Positions 8,753 to 50,676 of a stretch of 64,000 nucleotides of DNA are shown one piece after another (the stretch's first letter is position 1; each line of letters opens with the position of its first letter). Source of the DNA: Thermoanaerobaculia bacterium (GTDB lineage: Bacteria; Acidobacteriota; Thermoanaerobaculia; Multivoradales; Multivoraceae); contig OY761158.1 in the NCBI GenBank assembly GCA_963664405.1, positions 3,456,001 to 3,520,000 on the forward strand, written 5' to 3'. The position numbers were made by a program, and so were the translations under genes. The notes beneath the pieces are model-generated. The model did not search any database. It was not told the origin of the DNA and saw only the letters and a program-made list of their open reading frames with translations.

Positions 8753-8833
8753 ATTGCGTGCCGTGTTGGTGCTGACGATATACTCGAGGGGTCGTTGCTG
8801 GCCGGCTGCGGACAACGCCCGAAGGAGCTTGAG

Positions 8834-9726
8834 TTGACCGTAGCTGGTTCGACCGAAAAGGCTTATACGCAGACCGAATGGGATCTGTCCCAGCTTTTCT
8901 CCGGCACCGATGATCCGCAAATTGACGAGGCGCTAGGGTCGCTCGAAGAAAGCGTATCCGAGCTGGAGTCTCGGCGTGACGCGTTGGACCAGGCGAGCGG
9001 GGGCGAGCTTCGAGACACGCTACAGCTCTACGAGCGGATCATCGAGAAGATGACCGTCCTCGGTGCTTTTGCCGGTCTCCGCTTCTCGGCCGACACTCAA
9101 GATGGCGAGGCGCTCAGCCTGCGCAACCGCGTCGAGCACGAGCTCACGGCCTTCGAGAACCGCGTCCTCTTCCTCCCGCTTTGGTGGAAGGCTCTTTCGG
9201 AGAGCAGAGCGAAGAAGTTGAGCGAGGGTGCCGACCTCGATCATGACCTCAGCTTCTATCTCGAGCACCAGCGTCGTCTGCGTCAGTACTCTGTCGACGA
9301 GGCGGCTGAGCAGCTCATCAATACCAAGGACGCGGACGGTGTAGGCGGCCTGCTCACCCTTCATTCGATGCTGACCAACCGACTCAGCTTCACGCTGCGG
9401 GTGGACGGCGAAGCCAAGGAGCTCACCCGAGACGAGCTCATGGTCCATGTCGCCTCTCCTAGAGCAGACCTGCGGCAGCAGTCTTATCAGGAACTGGGAC
9501 GAGTTCTCGAGCGAGAGGCACAGGTCCTGTCGCAGATCTACTCTCACCGAGTGCGCGACTGGCACAACGAGAATGTGAACCTGCGCGGCTATGCCTCTCC
9601 TCTTGCTGTAAGAAACGTTGCCAACGATGTGCCCGACGCGGCGGTGACGGCTCTGCTGGAGACTGCGGAGCGCAACACCGGAGTGTTTCATCGCTATTTC
9701 CGACTCAAGGCCTCCTGGCTAGGTAG
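8834..9726 (+). pseudogene. pepF: Oligoendopeptidase F (M3B family), 5' part, interrupted by IS21-like element 1
   Basis: WDLSQLF N-terminus; AAGGAG ribosome-binding site before TTG 8834; joins in frame to 13058 after removing the IS and one GGTAG copy (about 599 aa restored). Confidence 0.88.
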
Positions 9727-9738
9727 TGTTATCGGCGG

Positions 9739-10092
9739 TCATAAAGTGCGGGATTCCGGCTGTGTAGTGGCGCTTTTGGTTTCATCCTCCTCGAGAAGGG
9801 ACCGGTGCCGAAGGAGGATGTAGCGGACGTATTGAGGGTCGAGCTCGTCGTTGGTCAGGGCTCGATGTACGGAGCGGTAGTAGGCAAGTGAGTGAATCTG
9901 CGGCAGCGGATCGGTGCTGAGGCGCCGTCGCAAGGTGGCGAGTCGAATGGCATGGGCAAGCTCTTCGAGGGGGACGTTGGCTTGATAGAGCTTGTCGGCG
10001 ATGGCCCAGTCTCGGCGCCGAGGTCTAGGCGGGGTTTTAGGAGCGTCGAGGTAGAGGCGGATGAGCTCGGCGCGATACTCCTGTCGGATCAC
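9739..10092 (-). CDS. IS-encoded accessory ORF4 (117 aa), homologous to 46639-46995
   Basis: GTG start overlaps the istB TGA; shares RLY..P.TP, LP.I.SLAY and Y..Y motifs with the element 2 ORF; stop codon lies inside the terminal repeat. Confidence 0.75.
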   Translation of the reverse strand: MIRQEYRAELIRLYLDAPKTPPRPRRRDWAIADKLYQANVPLEELAHAIRLATLRRRLSTDPLPQIHSLAYYRSVHRALTNDELDPQYVRYILLRHRSLLEEDETKSATTQPESRTL

Positions 10093-10862
10093 GAGGTCTT
10101 CGCACTGCGCCGTCGAGGGCGAGTGCCGCTTCGGCGGGCCGAAGCGCGCTTCTTGGCGTGCTCCTTGGACTCCTTGAGCCGATAGGAATCGCCCTCGATG
10201 TTGACGAGCTCGCAGCGATGGACGAGGCGATCGACGATGGTGACGACGGTAGTAGCGTTGGGGAAGACCTCTCCCCATTCTCCAAAGGACTTGTTTGTGG
10301 TGATGAGAAGGGACTTATTTTCGTACCTGCGGGAAACGACCTCGAAAAGTAGATCGGCGTGGCGCGTGTCGTAGGACAGATATCCGAGCTCGTCAATGCA
10401 GAGCAGGGATGGGCGCGCAAAGAGCGCGAGCTTGCGCTGAAGGCTGGTCGAGGAGTCTTGTTCGGCGAGGGTGTTGAGCAGCTCCGAGGCGGTGAGGAAT
10501 CGGGCGGTGGCTCCACGTAGTACGGCTTGATGGGCGAGATTCTTGGCAATGAGCGTCTTGCCGATGCCGTTTGGCCCTATCAAGACAGCGTTGTGCCCTC
10601 GGGCGAGCCACTCGAGCCGAAAGAGATCTTCGATCTGCTCGCGGTCGATCTTCTTGGGCCAATTCCAGTCGAAGTCGGCCAGCGGCTTGAAGGTGCCGAG
10701 CCGGGCCCGACCCAGGCGTCGCTCCAGTCCGCGACGGGCTCGCTCCTGCTCTTCCCAGTCGAGCAGGTCGGGGAGCCAGGGTTGGTTGGCGACCTCATCC
10801 CAGTGGGCTAGGAGGCCATGGAGTTTCAGGGCTGTGGCACGCTCTTGGTCGGTGTTGTTCAT
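10089..10862 (-). CDS. istB: IS21 helper AAA+ ATPase IstB
   Basis: Walker A GPNGIGKT, Walker B IDELGY, TTNK, DRLVH and GDSYR. Confidence 0.95.
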   Translation of the reverse strand: MNNTDQERATALKLHGLLAHWDEVANQPWLPDLLDWEEQERARRGLERRLGRARLGTFKPLADFDWNWPKKIDREQIEDLFRLEWLARGHNAVLIGPNGIGKTLIAKNLAHQAVLRGATARFLTASELLNTLAEQDSSTSLQRKLALFARPSLLCIDELGYLSYDTRHADLLFEVVSRRYENKSLLITTNKSFGEWGEVFPNATTVVTIVDRLVHRCELVNIEGDSYRLKESKEHAKKRASARRSGTRPRRRSAKTS

Positions 10863-12358
10863 TCGTCGTCCTCCTCGTCGTTGGGGTTGTCGTAGTCGGC
10901 CAGTGCATGGGGAGTGACCGTGAGCTCCCGGATCCTGGGATCGTCGGGGAGCTGGACAGGCAGCGCGGGTAGGAGTCCCCGCTCGTGGCGCCGACGATCG
11001 AGGATGAGTCGCACCGCTTCGGGATGCGGGGATCCTTTTTCGAGGGCCTCGTCGATCGCCACTGCAAGCTCCCTGGGTCCACTCTCGGCAAGGAGCTCGA
11101 GGAGTCTGGCGACGGCACTCGAGAGTCGTCTCTGCCGTCGGGCCAGCTCCCGCAGGAGCTCTTCGGCCTGGGGCACCGTACGCAGCAGGTAGTCCTGGCC
11201 GCGCTGTGTACGTGCCTCGCGTTTCTGTCGTTCCAGCTCTTCTAGGTGACGGGGGTCTTCGATGATCTGGCCCTTGTCCCAGGACCTTGTGTGCTCGGCG
11301 ATGAGCTGCTCGCGATCGAAGATGCGCACACGCTCCGGGTCTGCGGCGATCTGTAGCGAGCGGGCGATGCGATCATGCGGGATCGAGTAGCGATTCGCAT
11401 CGAAGCTCAGGTAAGGAGTGCGCCGCGTGATCCGCTCGACCCATTCGTGGCAGGGGAAAGGCTGCGCCGGAAGGCTCACGAGATGAGAGCGCTCCTCGAG
11501 ATAGGCCTGCTCGACGGTGCGACGCCGGTCCTGGGGCCACGGGCGCTTCATCGCTCGGTCGCGACACCACTCCAGAGCGTCCCGGTTCAGCGCTTCTCTG
11601 TCCCAGGTGCGACGCAGCGGAAAGAAGGAAGTTCTGACAAAACGAATGGCTCGTTCGACGCGACCTTTTTCATTTCCTCGTCTGGGAGCAACGGGCCTTG
11701 GATCAAAGCCGTAGAAGTCGGCGAGCTCGAGAAGCCGTGGATGAAAGCGAATGGCGCTGCGGCGCCGCTCGAGCACAGCGCTGCGCAGATTGTCGTAGAG
11801 GTGGATCTTGGCCAGACCCTCAAAGAAGGAGAAGGCGAGGACATGCCCGGTCAGGAAGCTCGGCAGACGAGCGTCGTAGAAGAAGTGCAGAAAGAGAGCT
11901 CGCGAGTAGCTCAGCACCATGACGAAGGCGTAGAGACGGCGCTCTCCGCCATCGACCTTTCGGGTGCCGAAGTGAGCCCAGTCCACCTGGGCCTGTTCGC
12001 CGGCAAGCGTACGGAGCACAAAGAAAGCCTCAGGCGCCTTGCGGGGGCGCAGGCCGAGCTCGGCAATGCAGTGGCGGAAGTGATCCTCCCCACCGGGATA
12101 GTCACGCTTCTTGACCATCTCGTAGAGCACGCTCGCCGGCAGCTCCGGGTAGCGCTCAAAGACTTCCTGGATGAAGGGGACGAAGCGATCGACCATGGAC
12201 GCTCGTCGCGGCGATCGAGGCCGGCTCAGCCCTTCGCGTCGAAGGACTCGAGTGACCGTCGAGTGATGGATTCCCAGATGGCGGGCGATCGTGTTGCGCC
12301 GCCAGCCCTCCGACTCATAGAGACGGCGGATCTCGGCGGCGAGCTCGGGAGAGATCAT
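10859..12358 (-). CDS. istA: IS21 DDE transposase IstA
   Basis: N-terminal helix-turn-helix; QVDW, YDN and KGRVE catalytic motifs; NRYSIP. Confidence 0.95.
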   Translation of the reverse strand: MISPELAAEIRRLYESEGWRRNTIARHLGIHHSTVTRVLRREGLSRPRSPRRASMVDRFVPFIQEVFERYPELPASVLYEMVKKRDYPGGEDHFRHCIAELGLRPRKAPEAFFVLRTLAGEQAQVDWAHFGTRKVDGGERRLYAFVMVLSYSRALFLHFFYDARLPSFLTGHVLAFSFFEGLAKIHLYDNLRSAVLERRRSAIRFHPRLLELADFYGFDPRPVAPRRGNEKGRVERAIRFVRTSFFPLRRTWDREALNRDALEWCRDRAMKRPWPQDRRRTVEQAYLEERSHLVSLPAQPFPCHEWVERITRRTPYLSFDANRYSIPHDRIARSLQIAADPERVRIFDREQLIAEHTRSWDKGQIIEDPRHLEELERQKREARTQRGQDYLLRTVPQAEELLRELARRQRRLSSAVARLLELLAESGPRELAVAIDEALEKGSPHPEAVRLILDRRRHERGLLPALPVQLPDDPRIRELTVTPHALADYDNPNDEEDDE

Positions 12359-12806
12359 CCCGCGCCCGCCTGCGCACCGGGCGTACTCGGCGCGATCGCA
12401 AGAAGTCGTGGCGGACAATCGGCTCGCAAGGATGGCGGCACAGCCTGCAGAGAAGCTCCTCGTTCCGACCTCCAACGGACAAGCCTTGCAAAAACAACGG
12501 AAGCGGCGCGGTGGGCCATGACGCCACCGTCGCAGGGCAGCCCCCGGTGCGGCAACTGTGATGCGTCACTTTCTTTGAGCCTTGCTGCTTGCGATCTCGA
12601 TAGGCCTGCTGACGACGAGCATGCAAGCGGCGCCCTCGCGGCGTCTGCTGATAGCGACGCCCGGCCCCGCGAAGGCTGTGGCGCCGAGCCTCATCCCGGC
12701 ACTCCGGCGTGCAATAACGATGGCCGCGATCGCACCAAGAGCAAATGTAGACAGCTTGCCGGCAACGATCGCAAACGAAACGGCGACAATCGGGACGGCG
12801 GCGCAC
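12315..12806 (-). CDS. IS-encoded Cys/Arg-rich putative zinc-binding ORF1 (about 163 aa)
   Basis: CDRC-x5-CSWCDRGHRYC...KVTH...CRLC motif shared with 49265-49660; AGGAGG ribosome-binding site before GTG 12806. Confidence 0.75.
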   Translation of the reverse strand: MRRRPDCRRFVCDRCRQAVYICSWCDRGHRYCTPECRDEARRHSLRGAGRRYQQTPRGRRLHARRQQAYRDRKQQGSKKVTHHSCRTGGCPATVASWPTAPLPLFLQGLSVGGRNEELLCRLCRHPCEPIVRHDFLRSRRVRPVRRRARDDLSRARRRDPPSL

Positions 12807-13057
12807 GGCCCAGGCCTCCTTCGGCCTGGACTTCGCCACCCGCAGGCGGAATACTCCCTCTTCTGGGGCGTCATACCCCAGGCCTTCCGGCGGTGGGCGG
12901 TCACCTTGCTTGGAGTCGCCCCCGCCGGTCTCCCCATACTCCCACCTGCCACGCTGCTCGCGCGCTCGCGCGCGACGATGATGCTGAAGAGACTCTCAGC
13001 AGGAAACGCGGTCAGAAAGCCGGGATCGCGCGCTTCTTAAGCGCCGTTGACAGGTAG

Positions 13058-13964
13058 TGATCGACTTCGGCGCTACGACCTCTACGCCCCGGCCACGGCG
13101 GGCGAGCGGAGGGTCGACTATCGAGATGCGGTGGACGCGGTTCTAGCCACCTTCGGCGACTTCCATCCGCGTTTCGCTCGCGAAGCCCGACGCGTCTTCG
13201 ACGATGGGCACATCGACAGCGAGATTCGAGCCGGCAAAAAAATGGGGGCGTTCTGCGCCTCCGCCGTGCCACACCTCGCCCCTTGGGTGCTGGTGAACTT
13301 CGCGGGTCGTTTACGTGATGTGGCGATACTCGCTCACGAGCTAGGCCACGCGGTTCATGGCATGCTGGCATCTGAGCACTCGGTTCTCACATTCCATCCC
13401 TCGCTACCGATGGCCGAGACCGCGTCGGTTTTCGCTGAGATGTTGATGACCGATCGCCTGCTGCGGGATGAGTCCGACCCGGATTCGCGGCGGGAGCTCC
13501 TGGGTGGCGCCCTCGACGACATATACGCCACGGTGCTGAGGCAGGCTTTCTTCGTTCGTTTCGAGATCAGTGCCCACCGAGCGATATTGGAGAACGCGTC
13601 GACCGAGGATCTCTGCGATCTCTATCTCGAGAACCTATCGGAGCAATTCGGCGACAGTGTGGAGATACCGCGGGAGTTTCGCTACGAGTGGCTTGGTATC
13701 CCTCACATATTCTCGACGCCTTTTTACTGCTACGCCTACAGCTTCGGTCAGTTGCTGGTACTAGCCCTCTATCGGCGCTATCAGAAGGACCCAGACGCTT
13801 TCCTACCTGGCTACCTGCGAATGCTGTCCTACGGTGGTTCGGCCCGCCCCGAACAGATCCTGGCAGAGGCCGATATCAATGCCTCCGACCCCGCCTTCTG
13901 GCAAGGCGGCTTCGACATCGTCGCCGAGATTGTCGACCAGCTCGAATCTCTACCGGCCGCGTAG
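13058..13964 (+). pseudogene. pepF: Oligoendopeptidase F, 3' part containing the catalytic HELGH motif
   Basis: GKKMGAFC, AHELGH, AETAS and FYCYAYSFG motifs. Confidence 0.9.
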
Positions 13965-45665: not shown

Positions 45666-46373
45666 TTGATCCAGTTCTTCAACGTCACCAAGAAGTTCCC
45701 TTCGGGACCGACTGCGTTAGCCGACGTCTCTTTCAAGATCGACCGCGGCGAGTTCGTCTTCCTCACCGGTCCCAGTGGCGCCGGAAAGACGACTCTGCTC
45801 AAGCTCATCTATCGTGAGGAGCTACCCGACTCCGGCCAGATCTTGGTCACCGGACGCAACGTCATCTCACTACCCCGTCGAAAGGTGCCCTATCTGAGGC
45901 GGTCGATCGGCGTCGTGTTCCAGAGCTTCCGTCTCATCTCGCGCAAGACGGTGTTCGAAAACGTTGCCTATCTGCCCAGGATTCTCGGTATGTCGCGCGA
46001 TGAGCAGCAACGAATGTGCGAGAGGGCGTTGCGTCGAGTGGGCCTCGCTCACCGTCTCAACGCGTTTCCAAAGCAGCTCTCCGGGGGCGAGCAGCAACGC
46101 GTCACGCTGGCTCGCTCGTTGGTTTGCGAGCCCCGAATCCTGCTTGCCGACGAGCCGACGGGGAATCTCGACCCTGAGCTGTCGGAGGAGATCCTCGAGC
46201 TCTTCCAGGAGATCCACTCCCAGGGCACAACGGTGATCCTGGCGACCCACGATAGACGTATCTTGGAGACGATTGGAGGGCGGGTCCTGCTTCTCCATCG
46301 GGGGCGTCTGGCGGCGGACGGTGTTCGTGCTGCCAAGCGGGGCTCCGAGGAGCTCGGGGTGGAAGAATCTTGA
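45666..46373 (+). CDS. ftsE: Cell division ATP-binding protein FtsE
   Basis: GPSGAGKTT, LRRSIGVVFQ, LSGGEQQR and DEPTGNLDP motifs. Confidence 0.93.
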   Translation: MIQFFNVTKKFPSGPTALADVSFKIDRGEFVFLTGPSGAGKTTLLKLIYREELPDSGQILVTGRNVISLPRRKVPYLRRSIGVVFQSFRLISRKTVFENVAYLPRILGMSRDEQQRMCERALRRVGLAHRLNAFPKQLSGGEQQRVTLARSLVCEPRILLADEPTGNLDPELSEEILELFQEIHSQGTTVILATHDRRILETIGGRVLLLHRGRLAADGVRAAKRGSEELGVEES

Positions 46374-46629
46374 CGCTGCTGAAGGCTCTGGGCTACTTCT
46401 CCGCGGAGGCTTGGCAGAGCCTGGTGCGGAGCTGGAAGGTCAGCTTGGTGGCGGTGCTGACGATCGGTGTGAGTCTCTTCCTCACCGGCGGCTTTCTCGT
46501 CACGCTGCGGAATCTGTCGACCGCCGTTGCGGGCTGGCAACAAGAGGTTGCTGTGGTCGTCTACATGCCCGCGGAAGTCAACCCGACAGATGTCGAAGAT
46601 CTGCGATTCGTCTTGGACGCGCCTCCATG
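46370..46629 (+). pseudogene. ftsX: FtsX 5' part, interrupted by IS21-like element 2
   Basis: First membrane segment and start of the periplasmic domain; joins 50025 in frame (DAPP-W-VSEV; about 303 aa restored). Confidence 0.88.
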
Positions 46630-46638
46630 TGTTACCGG

Positions 46639-46995
46639 CTACGAGAAAGCGCACTTAGTTGGCTGCGAGTCGGTTTTTTGTCCCCGCGAGGCGTGACTCA
46701 GGGTGTGGCGCAGATAGTCGAGGTACCCCTCGGGGGGTGGCGTCGTGGGGAGTTCTCGGAGGATGGGGAGAAAGTAGGCGAGGGATCGGATGGGCTGGAG
46801 CTTTGGTAGGCGCGGATCTCGGCATGCGCGTCGGGCGGAGCCGAGGAGGAGGGCGGCCTGGAGGACGGTGAGAGGCAGGTCTTGGTCGAAGAGCTGGTCG
46901 ACGATGACGCGGTCGCCGTGGTGGAAGCGGTGCGGGGTGTCGGGAAGGAGTCGATAGAGGCGGAGGAGCTGGCGCCGATAGTGGCTTCGGGTCAT
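46639..46995 (-). CDS. IS-encoded accessory ORF4 (118 aa), homologous to 9739-10092
   Basis: ATG start overlaps the istB TGA; RLY..LPDTP, LQPIRSLAYF and GYLDYL motifs; stop codon lies inside the terminal repeat. Confidence 0.78.
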   Translation of the reverse strand: MTRSHYRRQLLRLYRLLPDTPHRFHHGDRVIVDQLFDQDLPLTVLQAALLLGSARRACRDPRLPKLQPIRSLAYFLPILRELPTTPPPEGYLDYLRHTLSHASRGQKTDSQPTKCAFS

Positions 46996-47786
46996 GAGCG
47001 TCGTCGTGCTGCGCTCCGCCTTTTGGCGCGGTCCTTGGCCTTTTTTTCAGCAGCCTCCTTGGCCTCCTTGCGGCGATAGGAGTTAGCCTCGATCTTGACG
47101 ATCTCGGCGTGGTGGGTGAGTCGATCGACGAGAGTGACGACGCAGGAGGCGTTGGGAAAGACCTCGGCCCATTCGGCGAAGGGCTTGTTGGTGGTGAGAA
47201 GAATGGGCTTGTTGCCGTATCTCCTGGAGACGACCTCGAAGAGGAGATCCGCGTGGCGGTGGTCGTAGGAGAGATAGCCGAGCTCATCGATTGCCAAAAG
47301 CGAGGGTCGGGTGTATTTGGAGAGCCTTCTCTGGAGCGCCGAGGGGGTTTCCTGGACGGCGAGATCGTTGAGCATGTCGGAGGCGGTGACGAAGCTGGCG
47401 GTGGCCCCTCGTTGCAGCGCCTGGTAGAGGAGGTTCTTGGCAATCATGGTCTTGCCGACACCGTTGGGTCCGAGGAGGATGACGTTGGTGATGTCGTCGA
47501 GGAATTGGAGGGTGAGCAGATCCTGGATCTGCTCGCGGTCGATGCGCTGGGGCCAGGAGAAGTCGAAGTCGGCGATGCTCTTGAAGAGCCCGACGCGGCT
47601 GGTGCGGATGCGCCGTTCGAGGCTGCGCCGTTTGCGCTCGGCCTCTTCTTTGCGCAGCAGCTGTTCGAGCCAGGGCTGTTCTCGGTAGGTGCCCCAGTCG
47701 TCGACGAGGGCGTAGAAGCCGAGGGATCGGGCGAGCTCTCGTAGTGGTTCGTCAGGGATCGTTGGACTCTTCCTGGGTCGGGCCAT
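46992..47786 (-). CDS. istB: IS21 helper ATPase IstB
   Basis: GPNGVGKT, IDELGY, TTNK and DRLTHH motifs. Confidence 0.95.
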   Translation of the reverse strand: MARPRKSPTIPDEPLRELARSLGFYALVDDWGTYREQPWLEQLLRKEEAERKRRSLERRIRTSRVGLFKSIADFDFSWPQRIDREQIQDLLTLQFLDDITNVILLGPNGVGKTMIAKNLLYQALQRGATASFVTASDMLNDLAVQETPSALQRRLSKYTRPSLLAIDELGYLSYDHRHADLLFEVVSRRYGNKPILLTTNKPFAEWAEVFPNASCVVTLVDRLTHHAEIVKIEANSYRRKEAKEAAEKKAKDRAKRRSAARRRS

Positions 47787-49260
47787 CGTCGTTGCCTCCA
47801 AGTTGGTCGTAGTCCTCGAGGTTGTGCGGTCTCACGGAGAGATCTCGCTGTTGGAGCTCCTGGCTGAGCGGCACCGGTAAAGCCGGGGGCTGACCGAGGC
47901 CGCGCTGGTGCCGTTCGAGTAGGAGCCGGACGGACTGGAATCGCGGTGCGTGGTTCAGGAGCGCTTCGCGCACGGCTTTGTCGAGTCGCTGGGGGCCGTA
48001 CTGGCGCAGGAGTCGGAGCAGGCCGGCGGTCTGCGTTCCGAGGTTCTCGCCTCGCTCGGCGAGCTGCTGCATCAGCTCTTCGCATCGAGGCACAGCGGAA
48101 AACAGCCGATGGAAGCCCCGGTGTCGTCGGGCCCTGCGTTTGTGAGCGAGGAGCTCCTCGAGGTGTTGAGGATCGAGGATCTGCTCGCCCCGGGAGTACG
48201 AGCGAGGGTGCTCGGCGAGGAGCTCCTGGCCATCGAGGATCCGCACCCGATGCTCGCTGGCGAGGAGCGTGACGGTCCTCTGCACATGACTGTGCGGCAC
48301 CGAGTAGTCGTTGAGGTCGAAGCGCACGATCGGCGTCTTTCTGACCTTGATCTCCAGTCGCAGGTCGGTTTCGAAGTCGTCTCCGGGAAGCTCAAGCAGT
48401 CGAGGTCGTTCCTGGGCCAGGGCGCTTTTCACGGTTCGCTGTCGGTCCTGCGGCCAGGGTCTGCGCTGCGACCTCTGGCACCATTCCAGGACCTGCCGAT
48501 TCAGACGATCCAAATCGCTCACCGTTCGGGCGCCGAAGAACGAGCTTCGCAGGAAGCGGATTGCGCGCTCGACGCGGCCTTTCTCATTTCCCCGAGCCAC
48601 CGCGGCGACGGTGGGAAGGAAGCCGTAGTGGCTGGCGAAATCGAGCAGCACGGGATGGAAGCGCACCGCGGTTCCCTGCCGCTCGATCACCGCGGTTCGC
48701 AGGTTGTCGTACAGAACGGTCCTGACGACGCCGTCGACGTAGTGGAAGGCCAGCTGGTGAGCGTGCAAGAAGGTTTCGAGACGAGTGTCGAGGGTGAAGT
48801 GCACGAAGACCGTGCGCGAGAACGACAGCACGAAGACGAAGGCATAGAGCCGACGATGTGCCCGGCCGACGCGGAGCCGACCGAAGTGGCCCCAGTCGAC
48901 CTGCGCCTGCTCTCCTGGCAGCATGCGCAGCGAGAGAAACGCCTCGCGCTGGGGCTTCGGTCGCATCGAGGCCACCAGGTGGCGAAACTGATCCGGGCCT
49001 CCTGGATAGCCGCGCTCCACCACCATGGTGTAGAGACGGCTCGCCGGCAGTCGTGGGTAGGTCCCGAGCACCTGCTCGATGAACGGCAGGTAAGGATCGA
49101 TCATCCTCCCTCGTCGCTGCTGGGGTAGCACGCCGGACTTCTCCAGCGCCCGGCGCACGGTTGAGGGGTGCAGCTGTAGCTGTCGAGCGATCGTGCCGAC
49201 TTTCCACTTCTCGACCAGGAACAGACGACGGATCTCCCCGCGCAGCTGTGCGTCGATCAC
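47752..49260 (-). CDS. istA: IS21 DDE transposase IstA
   Basis: Helix-turn-helix; QVDW, YDN, KGRVE and NDYSVP motifs. Confidence 0.95.
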   Translation of the reverse strand: MIDAQLRGEIRRLFLVEKWKVGTIARQLQLHPSTVRRALEKSGVLPQQRRGRMIDPYLPFIEQVLGTYPRLPASRLYTMVVERGYPGGPDQFRHLVASMRPKPQREAFLSLRMLPGEQAQVDWGHFGRLRVGRAHRRLYAFVFVLSFSRTVFVHFTLDTRLETFLHAHQLAFHYVDGVVRTVLYDNLRTAVIERQGTAVRFHPVLLDFASHYGFLPTVAAVARGNEKGRVERAIRFLRSSFFGARTVSDLDRLNRQVLEWCQRSQRRPWPQDRQRTVKSALAQERPRLLELPGDDFETDLRLEIKVRKTPIVRFDLNDYSVPHSHVQRTVTLLASEHRVRILDGQELLAEHPRSYSRGEQILDPQHLEELLAHKRRARRHRGFHRLFSAVPRCEELMQQLAERGENLGTQTAGLLRLLRQYGPQRLDKAVREALLNHAPRFQSVRLLLERHQRGLGQPPALPVPLSQELQQRDLSVRPHNLEDYDQLGGNDDGPTQEESNDP

Positions 49261-49264
49261 GCCC

Positions 49265-49660
49265 CTATCTCCGTCGGCAACGACGAAAGCTCGTTCGCAC
49301 AAACTCTCGGCAGGCCTCTCCACACTGCATGCATCGCGGATTCCTCGGGTCGTAGCGCACTTCGCGCCTCGGAGTCTCGATCCGACACAGTGTCCTCCCC
49401 GAAGTACCGCCTGGGGTACCCTGATGCGTCACTTTCTCTGCCCGCTCGCGCTGGCGCCGACGGTAGCGGGCCTGACGGGCGGCATGACAATGCCGACCTC
49501 GGAGGCTTCGCTGGTACCGATGGCCGGCCGCCCGAGTCGATTCCCGACGAGCCACCAGAGCACAAGCCCGGCAGTAACGCTGGCCACGGTCACAGTGCGA
49601 GCACAGCGAGATACGCCGACGGCATCGAGCACAGTCGAAGAGTCGGTAGTCCGGTCGCAT
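49265..49660 (-). CDS. IS-encoded Cys/Arg-rich putative zinc-binding ORF1 (131 aa)
   Basis: CARC-x5-CSHCDRGQRYC...KVTH...CMQC motif; GGGAGG ribosome-binding site. Confidence 0.78.
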   Translation of the reverse strand: MRPDYRLFDCARCRRRISLCSHCDRGQRYCRACALVARRESTRAAGHRYQRSLRGRHCHAARQARYRRRQRERAEKVTHQGTPGGTSGRTLCRIETPRREVRYDPRNPRCMQCGEACREFVRTSFRRCRRR

Positions 49661-50024
49661 CGTCGCCTCCCATTCGACGACGACCCCGACTCTCTGCCAT
49701 ACTGCAAGCGCAGCTAATGCTGCGGTTTGGGGCAGAGCCCGGGGCGTTTTCTACTTCGCTTTCCCGGGCTCTCGCCGTCTCTGGTCGGCCTGCTCTATCA
49801 GAGCAGAGCCCGCACTGCAAAGCCCTACACCGACTCACGCATCTCTTCCGACCGCAAACACGCCGCCGGGACCACGCACCCGGACCGCCGTTCCGGCGGG
49901 ATGATGCCGCCCTTCCTGAAGAAGGCCTAGCTTTCCCGCGGTCGCGAAGCCCTCAGCTCACTCCATCCCGGAAACTGCGCTCGCAGCCAACGGGATGCGC
50001 TTTCTCGCAGCCATCAACACCATG

Positions 50025-50676
50025 GGTGAGTGAGGTGGCAGAGGTGTCCTCCGCCGAGGCAGCAGAGCGATTCCGCGAGACCTTCCCGCGCCTCACGGAG
50101 GTGGCGAGAGCTTGGGAAGACGAGCTCTTTCCTCGGTCACTCGAGGCCGCACTGGAACCGGACAGGATCGATGAGGCTCAGTTCAGGGAGTGGGTCGAGG
50201 GACTGCGTATCCATCCCGCGGCTCTTATGGTGGATGCTGATCAGGACTGGTTGGATCAGCTGGCCACCGCCGTAGAGGTGTTGCGGGCGGGCGGGCTGAT
50301 CTTGGGGGCGGTATTTCTTGCTGCCGCGGCGCTGACGACAGCTAGCATCCTGCGCCTTGTTGCCCATCTGCATCGCGAAGAGATCGCGATCATGCGCCTG
50401 GTCGGTGCTACCGAGTTCTACATCCGAGGCCCTTTCTACATCGAGGGCCTCCTACAAGGCCTCGGTGGCGCGGTCCTCGCGCTTCTAGGGATCGTCGTCG
50501 GCGTTCGAGCCGTGCCCTCGAGCGAGGACGCTTCTCTTTGGTCCGCGCTCCTCTTCTCCGAGAGCATTCACCTCCAAGAGGTGGCGGTCATTCTTGTCGG
50601 CGGTGCGGTGGTCGGCGTGACGGGCGCGGTTCTCTCGCTGCGCCGCGAAGGCAGCGATTCGGAGGCGGGCGAGTGA
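50025..50676 (+). pseudogene. ftsX: FtsX 3' part
   Basis: REEIAIMRLVGATEFYIRGPFYIEG FtsX signature; three membrane segments. Confidence 0.9.

Follow-up and report, generated by a model that had tools for sequence, protein, structure and literature searches.

Two insertion sequences (ISs) of the IS21 family, here called elements A and B, lie within a 64,000-nucleotide stretch of the genome of a Thermoanaerobaculia bacterium (the window; contig OY761158.1, positions 3,456,001 to 3,520,000, with the positions below counted from its first nucleotide), and each begins with a small cysteine-rich, basic open reading frame (ORF), orf1, located upstream of the transposase gene istA. We identify orf1 as a genuine protein-coding gene and as a member of a widespread protein family without a family name, whose members occur in nine or more bacterial groups, as given in the sequence records. 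The gene and its linkage to istA are solid, and only the mechanism is proposed: we suggest, with a probability of roughly one half for the reading with its mechanism included, that orf1 encodes a zinc-stabilised accessory protein or regulator of this branch of the IS21 family.

The orf1 gene of element A is located on the minus strand at 12806..12315 and encodes a cysteine-rich basic protein of 163 amino acids, with a GTG start codon (12806-12804), a TGA stop codon (12317-12315) and the sequence AGGAGG (12820-12815) 8 nt upstream of the start; the reading frame stays open back to 12839. Its paralog in element B (minus strand, 49660..49265, 131 amino acids) begins with ATG (49660-49658), 5 nt downstream of GGGAGG (49671-49666). 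The first-pass annotation of this DNA had described both ORFs as preceded by good ribosome-binding sites and as the first gene of their elements, and both descriptions hold, with leaders (12807-13052 and 49661-50019) that end exactly at the ends of the elements. The two proteins are 40% identical over 132 columns (BLASTP, E 1e-16), and all of the shared motifs listed in that annotation (RPDxRxFxCxRC, CSxCDRGxRYC, RxAGxRYQ, RGRxxHAxRQxxYR, KVTH, CxxC-x3-C and VRxxF) are found in both copies.

The substitution pattern shows that orf1 is maintained as a protein. In 69 distinct sequences from other genomes, the entropy at codon positions 1, 2 and 3 amounts to 0.77, 0.77 and 1.42 bits (residues 6-80), and invariant residues are encoded by synonymous codons, of which five are used for Arg25, four for Gly26 and both TGT and TGC for Cys. 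Comparison with a diverged copy of element A in this genome yielded ratios of nonsynonymous to synonymous substitutions (dN/dS) of 0.36-0.37 for orf1, 0.11 for istA and 0.15 for istB, and most orf1 replacements between these two A-type copies sit in the linker of the protein. Among 80 loci from other species (L001-L080), of which 61 are non-redundant, 56 of the 61 have an open orf1 frame of 131-169 amino acids whose start codon is close to where it is expected. Homologs are thus not commonly frameshifted; common frameshifts had been named in the first-pass annotation as an observation that would speak against its proposal. The script found no start in four of the remaining five loci, and there is read-through into istA in one (L031, 2045-3292), where orf1 is in frame with istA in an open frame of 415 amino acids with a truncated istA part; this is probably a broken copy.

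The copies in the window, with their strong Shine-Dalgarno (SD) sequences, are unlike the loci in which an inverted repeat is located at the start codon. For 29 of 38 loci in the range L004-L080, the 20 nt upstream of the ATG hold no SD-like core. In the loci of this type, a short inverted repeat, CGGC-N6-8-GCCG or GGGC-N6-GCCC, abuts the ATG and shows compensatory changes between clades. The repeat could form a hairpin that controls initiation.

The linkage to the transposase gene is equally clear. In 74 of the 80 loci istA follows directly after orf1, and the six exceptions comprise four loci at the end of a contig, a truncated remnant (L051) and a copy cut by another IS just downstream (L078). 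When the istA start was chosen heuristically, the stop codon of orf1 was found to overlap it in 52 of the 61 non-redundant loci, by 17 nt in 31 and by 4 or 23 nt in others, and the other nine loci have gaps of 12-72 nt. Pairwise identities between orf1 proteins track those of IstA (Spearman 0.72) and IstB (0.67), values that are inflated by relatedness and that were reached in 0 of 999 Mantel permutations. A frameshift fusion of orf1 and IstA was also considered and rejected, because the gaps and frame relations vary and because istA has its own SD sequence, placed inside the end of orf1.

A contact between the orf1 protein and the transposase was weakly indicated by structure prediction, and we regard binding to IstA as a lead only. 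In a single prediction of IstA, IstB and the orf1 protein as a complex, each with its alignment and with orf1 as the scored protein, the score was 0.57 (0.57, 0.51 and 0.59 in the runs), which is graded as "weak support," and the best control scored 0.00. At least 71% of the contacts are common to the runs, and the predicted local distance difference test (pLDDT) of the partner is at least 67. Among solved complexes 116 of 157 reach the mark for this score, as do 2 of 215 mismatched pairs; only 18 of the 157, and both of the mismatches that passed, did so with a score of 0.60 or less. A control in which IstA was swapped and IstB retained also scored 0.00, and any complex signal therefore depends on IstA.

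The family to which orf1 belongs is large, well beyond anything that chance would produce. One search returned 232 relatives at E<=1e-3, and among the 120 relatives listed there was no Pfam domain and no name other than "hypothetical protein." When 1.84 billion cluster representatives were searched with a profile, 3923 matched at E<=1e-3, of which 2702 reached 1e-10 and 567 reached 1e-30, and 420 stretches in contigs from a set with one genome per species encode a relative. The groups named in the records are the Acidobacteriota, the Beta-, Gamma-, Alpha- and Deltaproteobacteria, the Planctomycetota, Limisphaerales, Polyangiaceae and Solirubrobacteraceae, and others, and many of the contigs with a relative are 3.3-3.8 kb long, which is the size of the element. 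Within the phylum of the window, orf1 was identified in 17 of 301 sampled genomes (15 of 299 when its own genome, G000, and the unpublished G049 are left out) and in none of the five other genomes of its own family, a patchy occurrence that fits a mobile element.

Profile and structure searches, which had been proposed as checks in the first-pass annotation, gave no significant match, and orf1 belongs to no named family. In Pfam the only row for orf1 was SAP (E 0.049, below its cut-off), the commonest row for 35 family members was Rhodanese_C (10 members, best E 0.041), and the DksA/TraR C4 zinc finger (zf-dskA_traR) matched none of the 35 at E<=1. No match was found for the protein in NCBIfam or PADLOC, a single row in PHROGs had an E-value of 0.076, and a profile search against the PDB returned only ribosomal uS14 (E 0.055). 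Likewise, Foldseek gave no rows at E<=0.001 against the PDB, where the best were the CW finger of MORC3 (8.3) and YacG (9.4), or against BFVD, and zinc-ribbon rows in these searches were non-significant only. An alignment with VIA-align to 48161 chains gave a best Z of 4.2 and only helical-hairpin look-alikes, and the 30 nearest clusters in the ESM Atlas are all "hypothetical" without a common Pfam family. A search for fused forms, in which five longer matches (231-274 amino acids) were obtained, revealed none with another domain, which is weak evidence. Full-text searches of the literature turned up no description of an ORF upstream of istA, and a named IS of this type may exist in ISfinder or TnPedia.

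The gene is often missed or miscalled by annotation pipelines. Among 18 matches on plasmids, 13 have no feature under orf1, according to a gene table that is incomplete. The RefSeq records of two plasmid copies (L081, 4232-4423, and L082, 3962-4228) fare no better, one having only the last 63 codons of orf1 annotated and the other an antisense ORF. A copy of such an element is also carried by the plasmid of Methylotuvimicrobium alcaliphilum 20Z.

In 66 aligned sequences, eight Cys residues in four pairs are invariant, arranged as CxxC-x6-CxxC-x6-Cx2-3C and followed by a CxxC near the C-terminus. The spacer between the first two pairs is thus six residues long and not five as first noted, and the C-terminal CxxC-x3-C described at the same time is conserved in the family as a CxxC pair and not in its third Cys. 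Also invariant are D26, R8, R41, G58, A63, R65, T81 and R132 (numbering of copy A), and at least 90% of the sequences share R27, G28, Y31, R51-Y52-Q53, H62, Q66 and H82. The protein is indeed very basic, as had been claimed, with an isoelectric point of 11.5 and 37 Arg in the 131 residues of copy B. The spacing of the invariant Cys pairs fits the suggested binding of metal, and we consider two Zn(Cys)4 sites probable; which pairs would share a site is a guess.

AlphaFold predicts the same fold for both copies, with a pLDDT of 82.4 for B (m586db599f501) and 78.2 for A (m81afeb20de4b). In the models, two short strands bear the first Cys pairs in a beta-hairpin knuckle module, two long antiparallel Arg-rich helices (approximately residues 31-51 and 53-75 in B) bear the conserved Arg, Tyr, Gln and His residues, and a low-confidence linker of variable length leads to a confidently predicted small C-terminal hairpin with the last CxxC. 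One Cys pair follows strand 1, a second follows strand 2, a third is placed where helix 1 begins, and the fourth is in the C-terminal hairpin. A relation to zinc-ribbon or treble-clef modules, a structural class rather than a family that is defined by CxxC knuckles on beta-hairpins or at the N-terminus of a helix with four ligands to each metal, may be considered, the zinc-ribbon rows of the searches being non-significant. Neither of the two models contains a helix-turn-helix or any other known DNA-reading module.

A second conserved feature is located inside the gene. The codons for K-V-T-H in element A (motif AAAGTGACGCATCA, minus strand, 12559..12572) and for K-V-T-H-Q-G in element B (motif AAAGTGACGCATCAGGGT, minus strand, 49418..49435) share the 11-mer GTGACGCATCA (12569-12559 and 49432-49422). 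Exact copies of this 11-mer are present in 69 of the 80 loci, which come from other genomes and had been found via a different peptide pattern. In 69 sequences the codons used at the motif are GTG in 64, ACG in 68, CAT in 68, CAG in 56 (CAC in 13) and GGT in 66, whereas His59 is encoded by CAT in 38, CAC in 29 and CAG in 2, and Gly26 by four different codons. The mean third-position entropy over the four motif codons is 0.23 bits, as compared to 0.69 and 0.53 bits in the lowest windows of istA and istB, each of these windows containing Met or Trp codons. No other spot of the IS is as conserved in nucleotide sequence across distant elements as this motif, which has a length of 11-18 nt (AAAGTGACGCATCA[GGGT]).

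Since the KVTH(Q)G codons are invariant at synonymous sites, the KVTH motif is only partly a protein feature. The first-pass annotation had considered that the conservation of orf1 might be explained by a DNA or RNA element, which applies to part of this motif only, the rest of the gene having a coding signature. The genome contains 35 copies of the 11-mer, 32 of them with an AA prefix, and the latter number equals the orf1 copy number by tblastn, an agreement in number. We found no reverse complement of the motif within four mismatches in element A or B, no complement of it at the istA start, no sigma-70 promoter in the leader and orf1 regions of both elements and a single Rfam row (E 0.89) in a scan of 49000-50100, and the motif is unlike the end consensus of other loci described below. 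The nucleotide pattern makes the motif a candidate cis element as well as a coding sequence, and ideas for its role include an internal binding site for IstA or the orf1 protein, or an RNA signal.

A conserved cis site some hundreds of base pairs inside the left end is superficially reminiscent of phage Mu, which has an internal transpositional enhancer and whose MuA and MuB proteins are related to the IstA-type transposase and its ATPase. The likeness concerns the motif only and is an analogy. The motif differs in being situated in a coding region and in being only 11-18 nt long, and binding by IstA or the orf1 protein is hypothetical.

Elements A (9727..13052, 3326 bp) and B (46630..50019, 3390 bp) are both oriented on the minus strand and have TGT...ACA ends, their limits being evident from the host genes that they interrupt. 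Element A is inserted in a gene for an M3 oligoendopeptidase-like protein and flanked by the target-site duplication (TSD) GGTAG (9722-9726 and 13053-13057), and element B in ftsX with the TSD CCATG (46625-46629 and 50020-50024). The split peptidase-like gene is recognized at 8795-9726 and 13053-13964, and an intact ftsE (45666-46373) is located directly upstream of the interrupted ftsX (46370-46696 and 50020-50676). The left end and leader of A (12807..13052, minus strand) begin with the terminal repeat TGTCAACGGCGC and span 246 nt to orf1, and those of B (49661..50019, minus strand) begin with TGTTGATGGCTGCGAGAAAGCGCA and span 359 nt. A 41-nt imperfect inverted repeat with repeated GGCTGCGAG was found in element B. 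Automated detection of terminal repeats was noisy in the other loci, of which about seven gave clear ends, with the consensus TGTTnnCGGC...CCGCGTAAATCTGGCG.

The gene order in both elements is orf1-istA-istB-orf4, with all four ORFs conserved and on the minus strand. The istA gene of A (10859..12358) encodes a DDE transposase (NF033546, 233.1 bits at a cut-off of 160), and its ATG at 12358 overlaps the end of orf1 by 44 nt; rve and Mu-transpos_C_2 domains are present in the product, as is a weak match to the TnsD model. In element B, istA (47752..49260) likely starts with the GTG at 49260, 4 nt past the orf1 stop, in a frame that is open back to 49323. The helper ATPase of the AAA+ class is encoded by istB at 10089..10862 in A (PF01695, E 3.6e-60), where the istA stop and istB start overlap in ATGA (10859-10862), and at 46992..47801 in B. 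The fourth gene, orf4, encodes a conserved hypothetical protein in A (9739..10278), where it overlaps the end of istB and its true start is uncertain, and a protein of 118 amino acids in B (46639..46995) that belongs to a small family of its own, with 30 relatives and no Pfam domain in any of them; the part of orf4 A beyond the istB stop has a dN/dS of 0.34. This gene runs into the right end and is common to A, B and loci L014, L029, L035-L041, L049 and L065. Another small acidic ORF (WTPE..LLDDL) follows istB in the proteobacterial loci L081 (6754-6945) and L082 (6690-6905) and is unrelated to orf4.

With an IstA-type DDE transposase, IstB directly downstream, terminal repeats and short TSDs, elements A and B belong to the IS21 family but have a variant architecture, the prototypical members having two ORFs and these elements four. 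They share with canonical members such as IS21 and IS5376 the succession of an IstA DDE transposase and an IstB AAA+ protein in overlapping genes, the TGT...ACA ends with repeated subterminal motifs and the short TSDs, and they differ by their size of 3.3-3.4 kb, by the extra gene upstream of istA and, in the present sub-branch, by the fourth gene after istB. In the literature, the family is described as having two ORFs (PMC10122671).

The elements are active in this genome. We identified 33 matches to orf1 in the 6.78 Mb, among them 23 B-type copies with an identical protein in all and eight A-type copies, of which six are identical, one is 99% and one is 85% identical. Seven full-length A and 21 full-length B elements were recognized, almost all with 100% nucleotide identity, and a perfect 5-bp TSD flanks 7 of 7 A and 18 of 21 B elements (25 of 28 together). 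There is no consensus among the 25 duplicated target sequences and their flanks, and the sites are in unrelated genes, observations that speak against a target selector with sequence specificity. In this genome, no orf1 is found upstream of four distant istA genes of the IS21 type (25-30% identity).

Several copies in this genome have a more complex history. An A-type copy at 2512933-2516246 is 95% identical to the element at 9727-13052 of the window overall, with 88% nucleotide identity in orf1 and orf4 and 98% in istA, and the synonymous divergence (dS) between the same two copies is 0.25-0.29 in orf1 as compared to 0.067 in istA. This mosaic divergence suggests recombination between related elements. 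A deletion derivative of about 0.6 kb, located outside the window at C1:1147866-1148318, retains only orf1 between sequences that resemble IS ends; this orf1 is diverged and open, encodes 150 amino acids, and has VTDH for VTH and a motif with one change. Furthermore, a B-type element is nested in an A-type element at 2641757-2650333, and the B copy at 6339246-6345987 is itself interrupted.

Our hypothesis for these data is that orf1 is conserved as the opening gene of an orf1-istA-istB operon, which would define a large, horizontally spread branch of the IS21 family. The protein would be made together with IstA by means of the overlapping stop and start codons, would bind nucleic acid through its Arg-rich hairpin and would associate with the IstA transposase, and may thus be an accessory factor or regulator, encoded by the element, of transpososome assembly or of ist gene expression. 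The invariant 11-18-nt site within orf1 would be a candidate cis site of the same circuit.

Several points weigh against this hypothesis. In the libraries and structures searched, no resemblance to a characterised protein of DNA binding or transposition could be detected, and zinc binding is derived from the spacing of the Cys residues only. By the calibration of the prediction tool, a complex score in the range obtained here is more often wrong than right unless the contact was likely beforehand. The Arg-rich protein could bind RNA rather than DNA, and its many invariant surface residues could reflect a conserved host partner and not IstA. Those IS21 members that have been characterised need no more than IstA and IstB for transposition (PMC10122671), and such members, together with the four orf1-less copies in this genome, argue that orf1 is not a general requirement of the IS21 family.

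Among known systems, orf1 most resembles in its proposed function the small accessory or regulatory proteins that are encoded ahead of the transposase in other ISs. InsA of IS1 and OrfA of the IS3 family are small basic proteins encoded upstream of and overlapping the transposase frame, and they bind the IS ends and damp transposition; InsA contains a zinc-finger-like motif and is defined by a zinc finger followed by a helix-turn-helix and by a frameshift fusion to the transposase. The orf1 protein is likewise small and basic, and its gene is upstream of and overlaps the transposase gene. It differs in that its models lack a helix-turn-helix, in that no Pfam relation was found and in that there is no programmed frameshift fusion, the frame relation to istA being variable and no fused form having been found among longer proteins.

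The first-pass annotation had proposed three possible roles for orf1, those of an autoregulator, an accessory factor that binds the ends and a target-selection factor. We considered, as a tentative alternative, that orf1 is a stand-alone autoregulator, which would repress ist expression without contact to IstA by binding to the leader, to the terminal repeats or to the motif in its DNA or mRNA form, thereby limiting transposition in the manner of InsA or OrfA. The position of orf1 as the first gene behind a long leader of 246-359 nt, the very basic protein and the presence of the most nucleotide-conserved site of the element in its own gene would all suit such a role. However, the models contain no known DNA-reading module, no sigma-70-like promoter was found in the leaders or around the motif, the terminal repeats vary from element to element whereas the surface residues of the protein are invariant, and the weak complex signal depends on IstA.

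It is less easy to see orf1 as a passenger, that is, a small zinc protein that acts on a conserved host machine such as RNA polymerase, gyrase, the ribosome or a defence system, outside the chemistry of transposition, and we consider this unlikely. A universally conserved host target could explain why residues are invariant across phyla, the deletion derivative retains orf1 and no other gene between IS ends, and the best of the non-significant matches are to ribosomal or generic zinc-ribbon proteins. Yet the position of orf1 and the overlap of its stop with the start of istA are fixed across some 60 diverged elements, orf1 was found outside IS21 contexts only as the L051 remnant, the cut copy L078 and one deletion derivative, and PADLOC gave no match; the solo copy lacks the invariant His and the motif, which suggests decay.

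The first-pass annotation had also suggested a target-selection factor, which now appears quite improbable, given the 25 TSDs without consensus and the score of 0.00 in the control with IstB and without IstA. In this scenario, orf1 would be a zinc protein similar to TniQ or TnsD that brings the AAA+ ATPase IstB to favoured target sites. There is a likeness to the TniQ/TnsD proteins of Tn7-like and Tn5053-like elements in that a zinc-containing accessory protein, as the Cys pattern suggests for orf1, is encoded beside a DDE transposase and an AAA+ ATPase, and TniQ too has a zinc finger (PMC10293859). The same paper describes a shared core some 300 residues long, with a helical domain, a zinc finger, a connector helix and a second helical domain (PMC10293859). 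The orf1 protein, with 131-163 amino acids, is less than half the size of this core and has one helical hairpin only, its gene is located upstream of the transposase gene, no target-site preference was seen for its element, and its predicted contact depends on the transposase and not on the ATPase. No Pfam model for TniQ or TnsD matched any of 35 orf1 family members at E<=1, and no TniQ or TnsD row was seen among the Foldseek or VIA matches, lists that leave a relation possible. We place orf1, by analogy, in the position of the "third component" that TniQ fills in Tn7-like elements, from which it is set apart by sequence and by core structure.

That orf1 is no gene at all, and owes its conservation to a DNA or RNA element or to an antisense gene, is highly improbable: the KVTHQG codons are conserved at synonymous sites, the antisense strand reads an SD-like GGGGA and then ATG, and PGAP has called an antisense ORF in one plasmid copy, but third positions outside the motif vary freely (1.42 bits), the dN/dS is 0.36, 56 of 61 loci have frames of 131-169 amino acids, no significant Rfam family was found (only row E 0.89), and an antisense gene was rejected because its frame stops after five codons in element A.

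Our findings add a gene to a family of elements that serves as a structural model for transposases governed by an AAA+ ATPase and that is described as a two-gene element. The fixed location of orf1 before istA raises the testable question of whether some IS21 elements encode an accessory, regulatory or targeting subunit of their own, and the embedded invariant site provides a second handle, which can be separated from the protein by experiment. The family merits a profile model, so that elements with orf1 are correctly annotated. One far-reaching and rather doubtful version of the hypothesis is that orf1 docks on IstA as a zinc-protein subunit and reads GTGACGCATCA, the site embedded in its own gene, in which case this branch of the IS21 family would operate as a three-component machine. 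If this were true, IS21-type transposons would gain an element-encoded control of assembly that resembles an enhancer and is comparable to the Mu enhancer and its accessory proteins, and such a control module would be absent from the IstA/IstB model systems.

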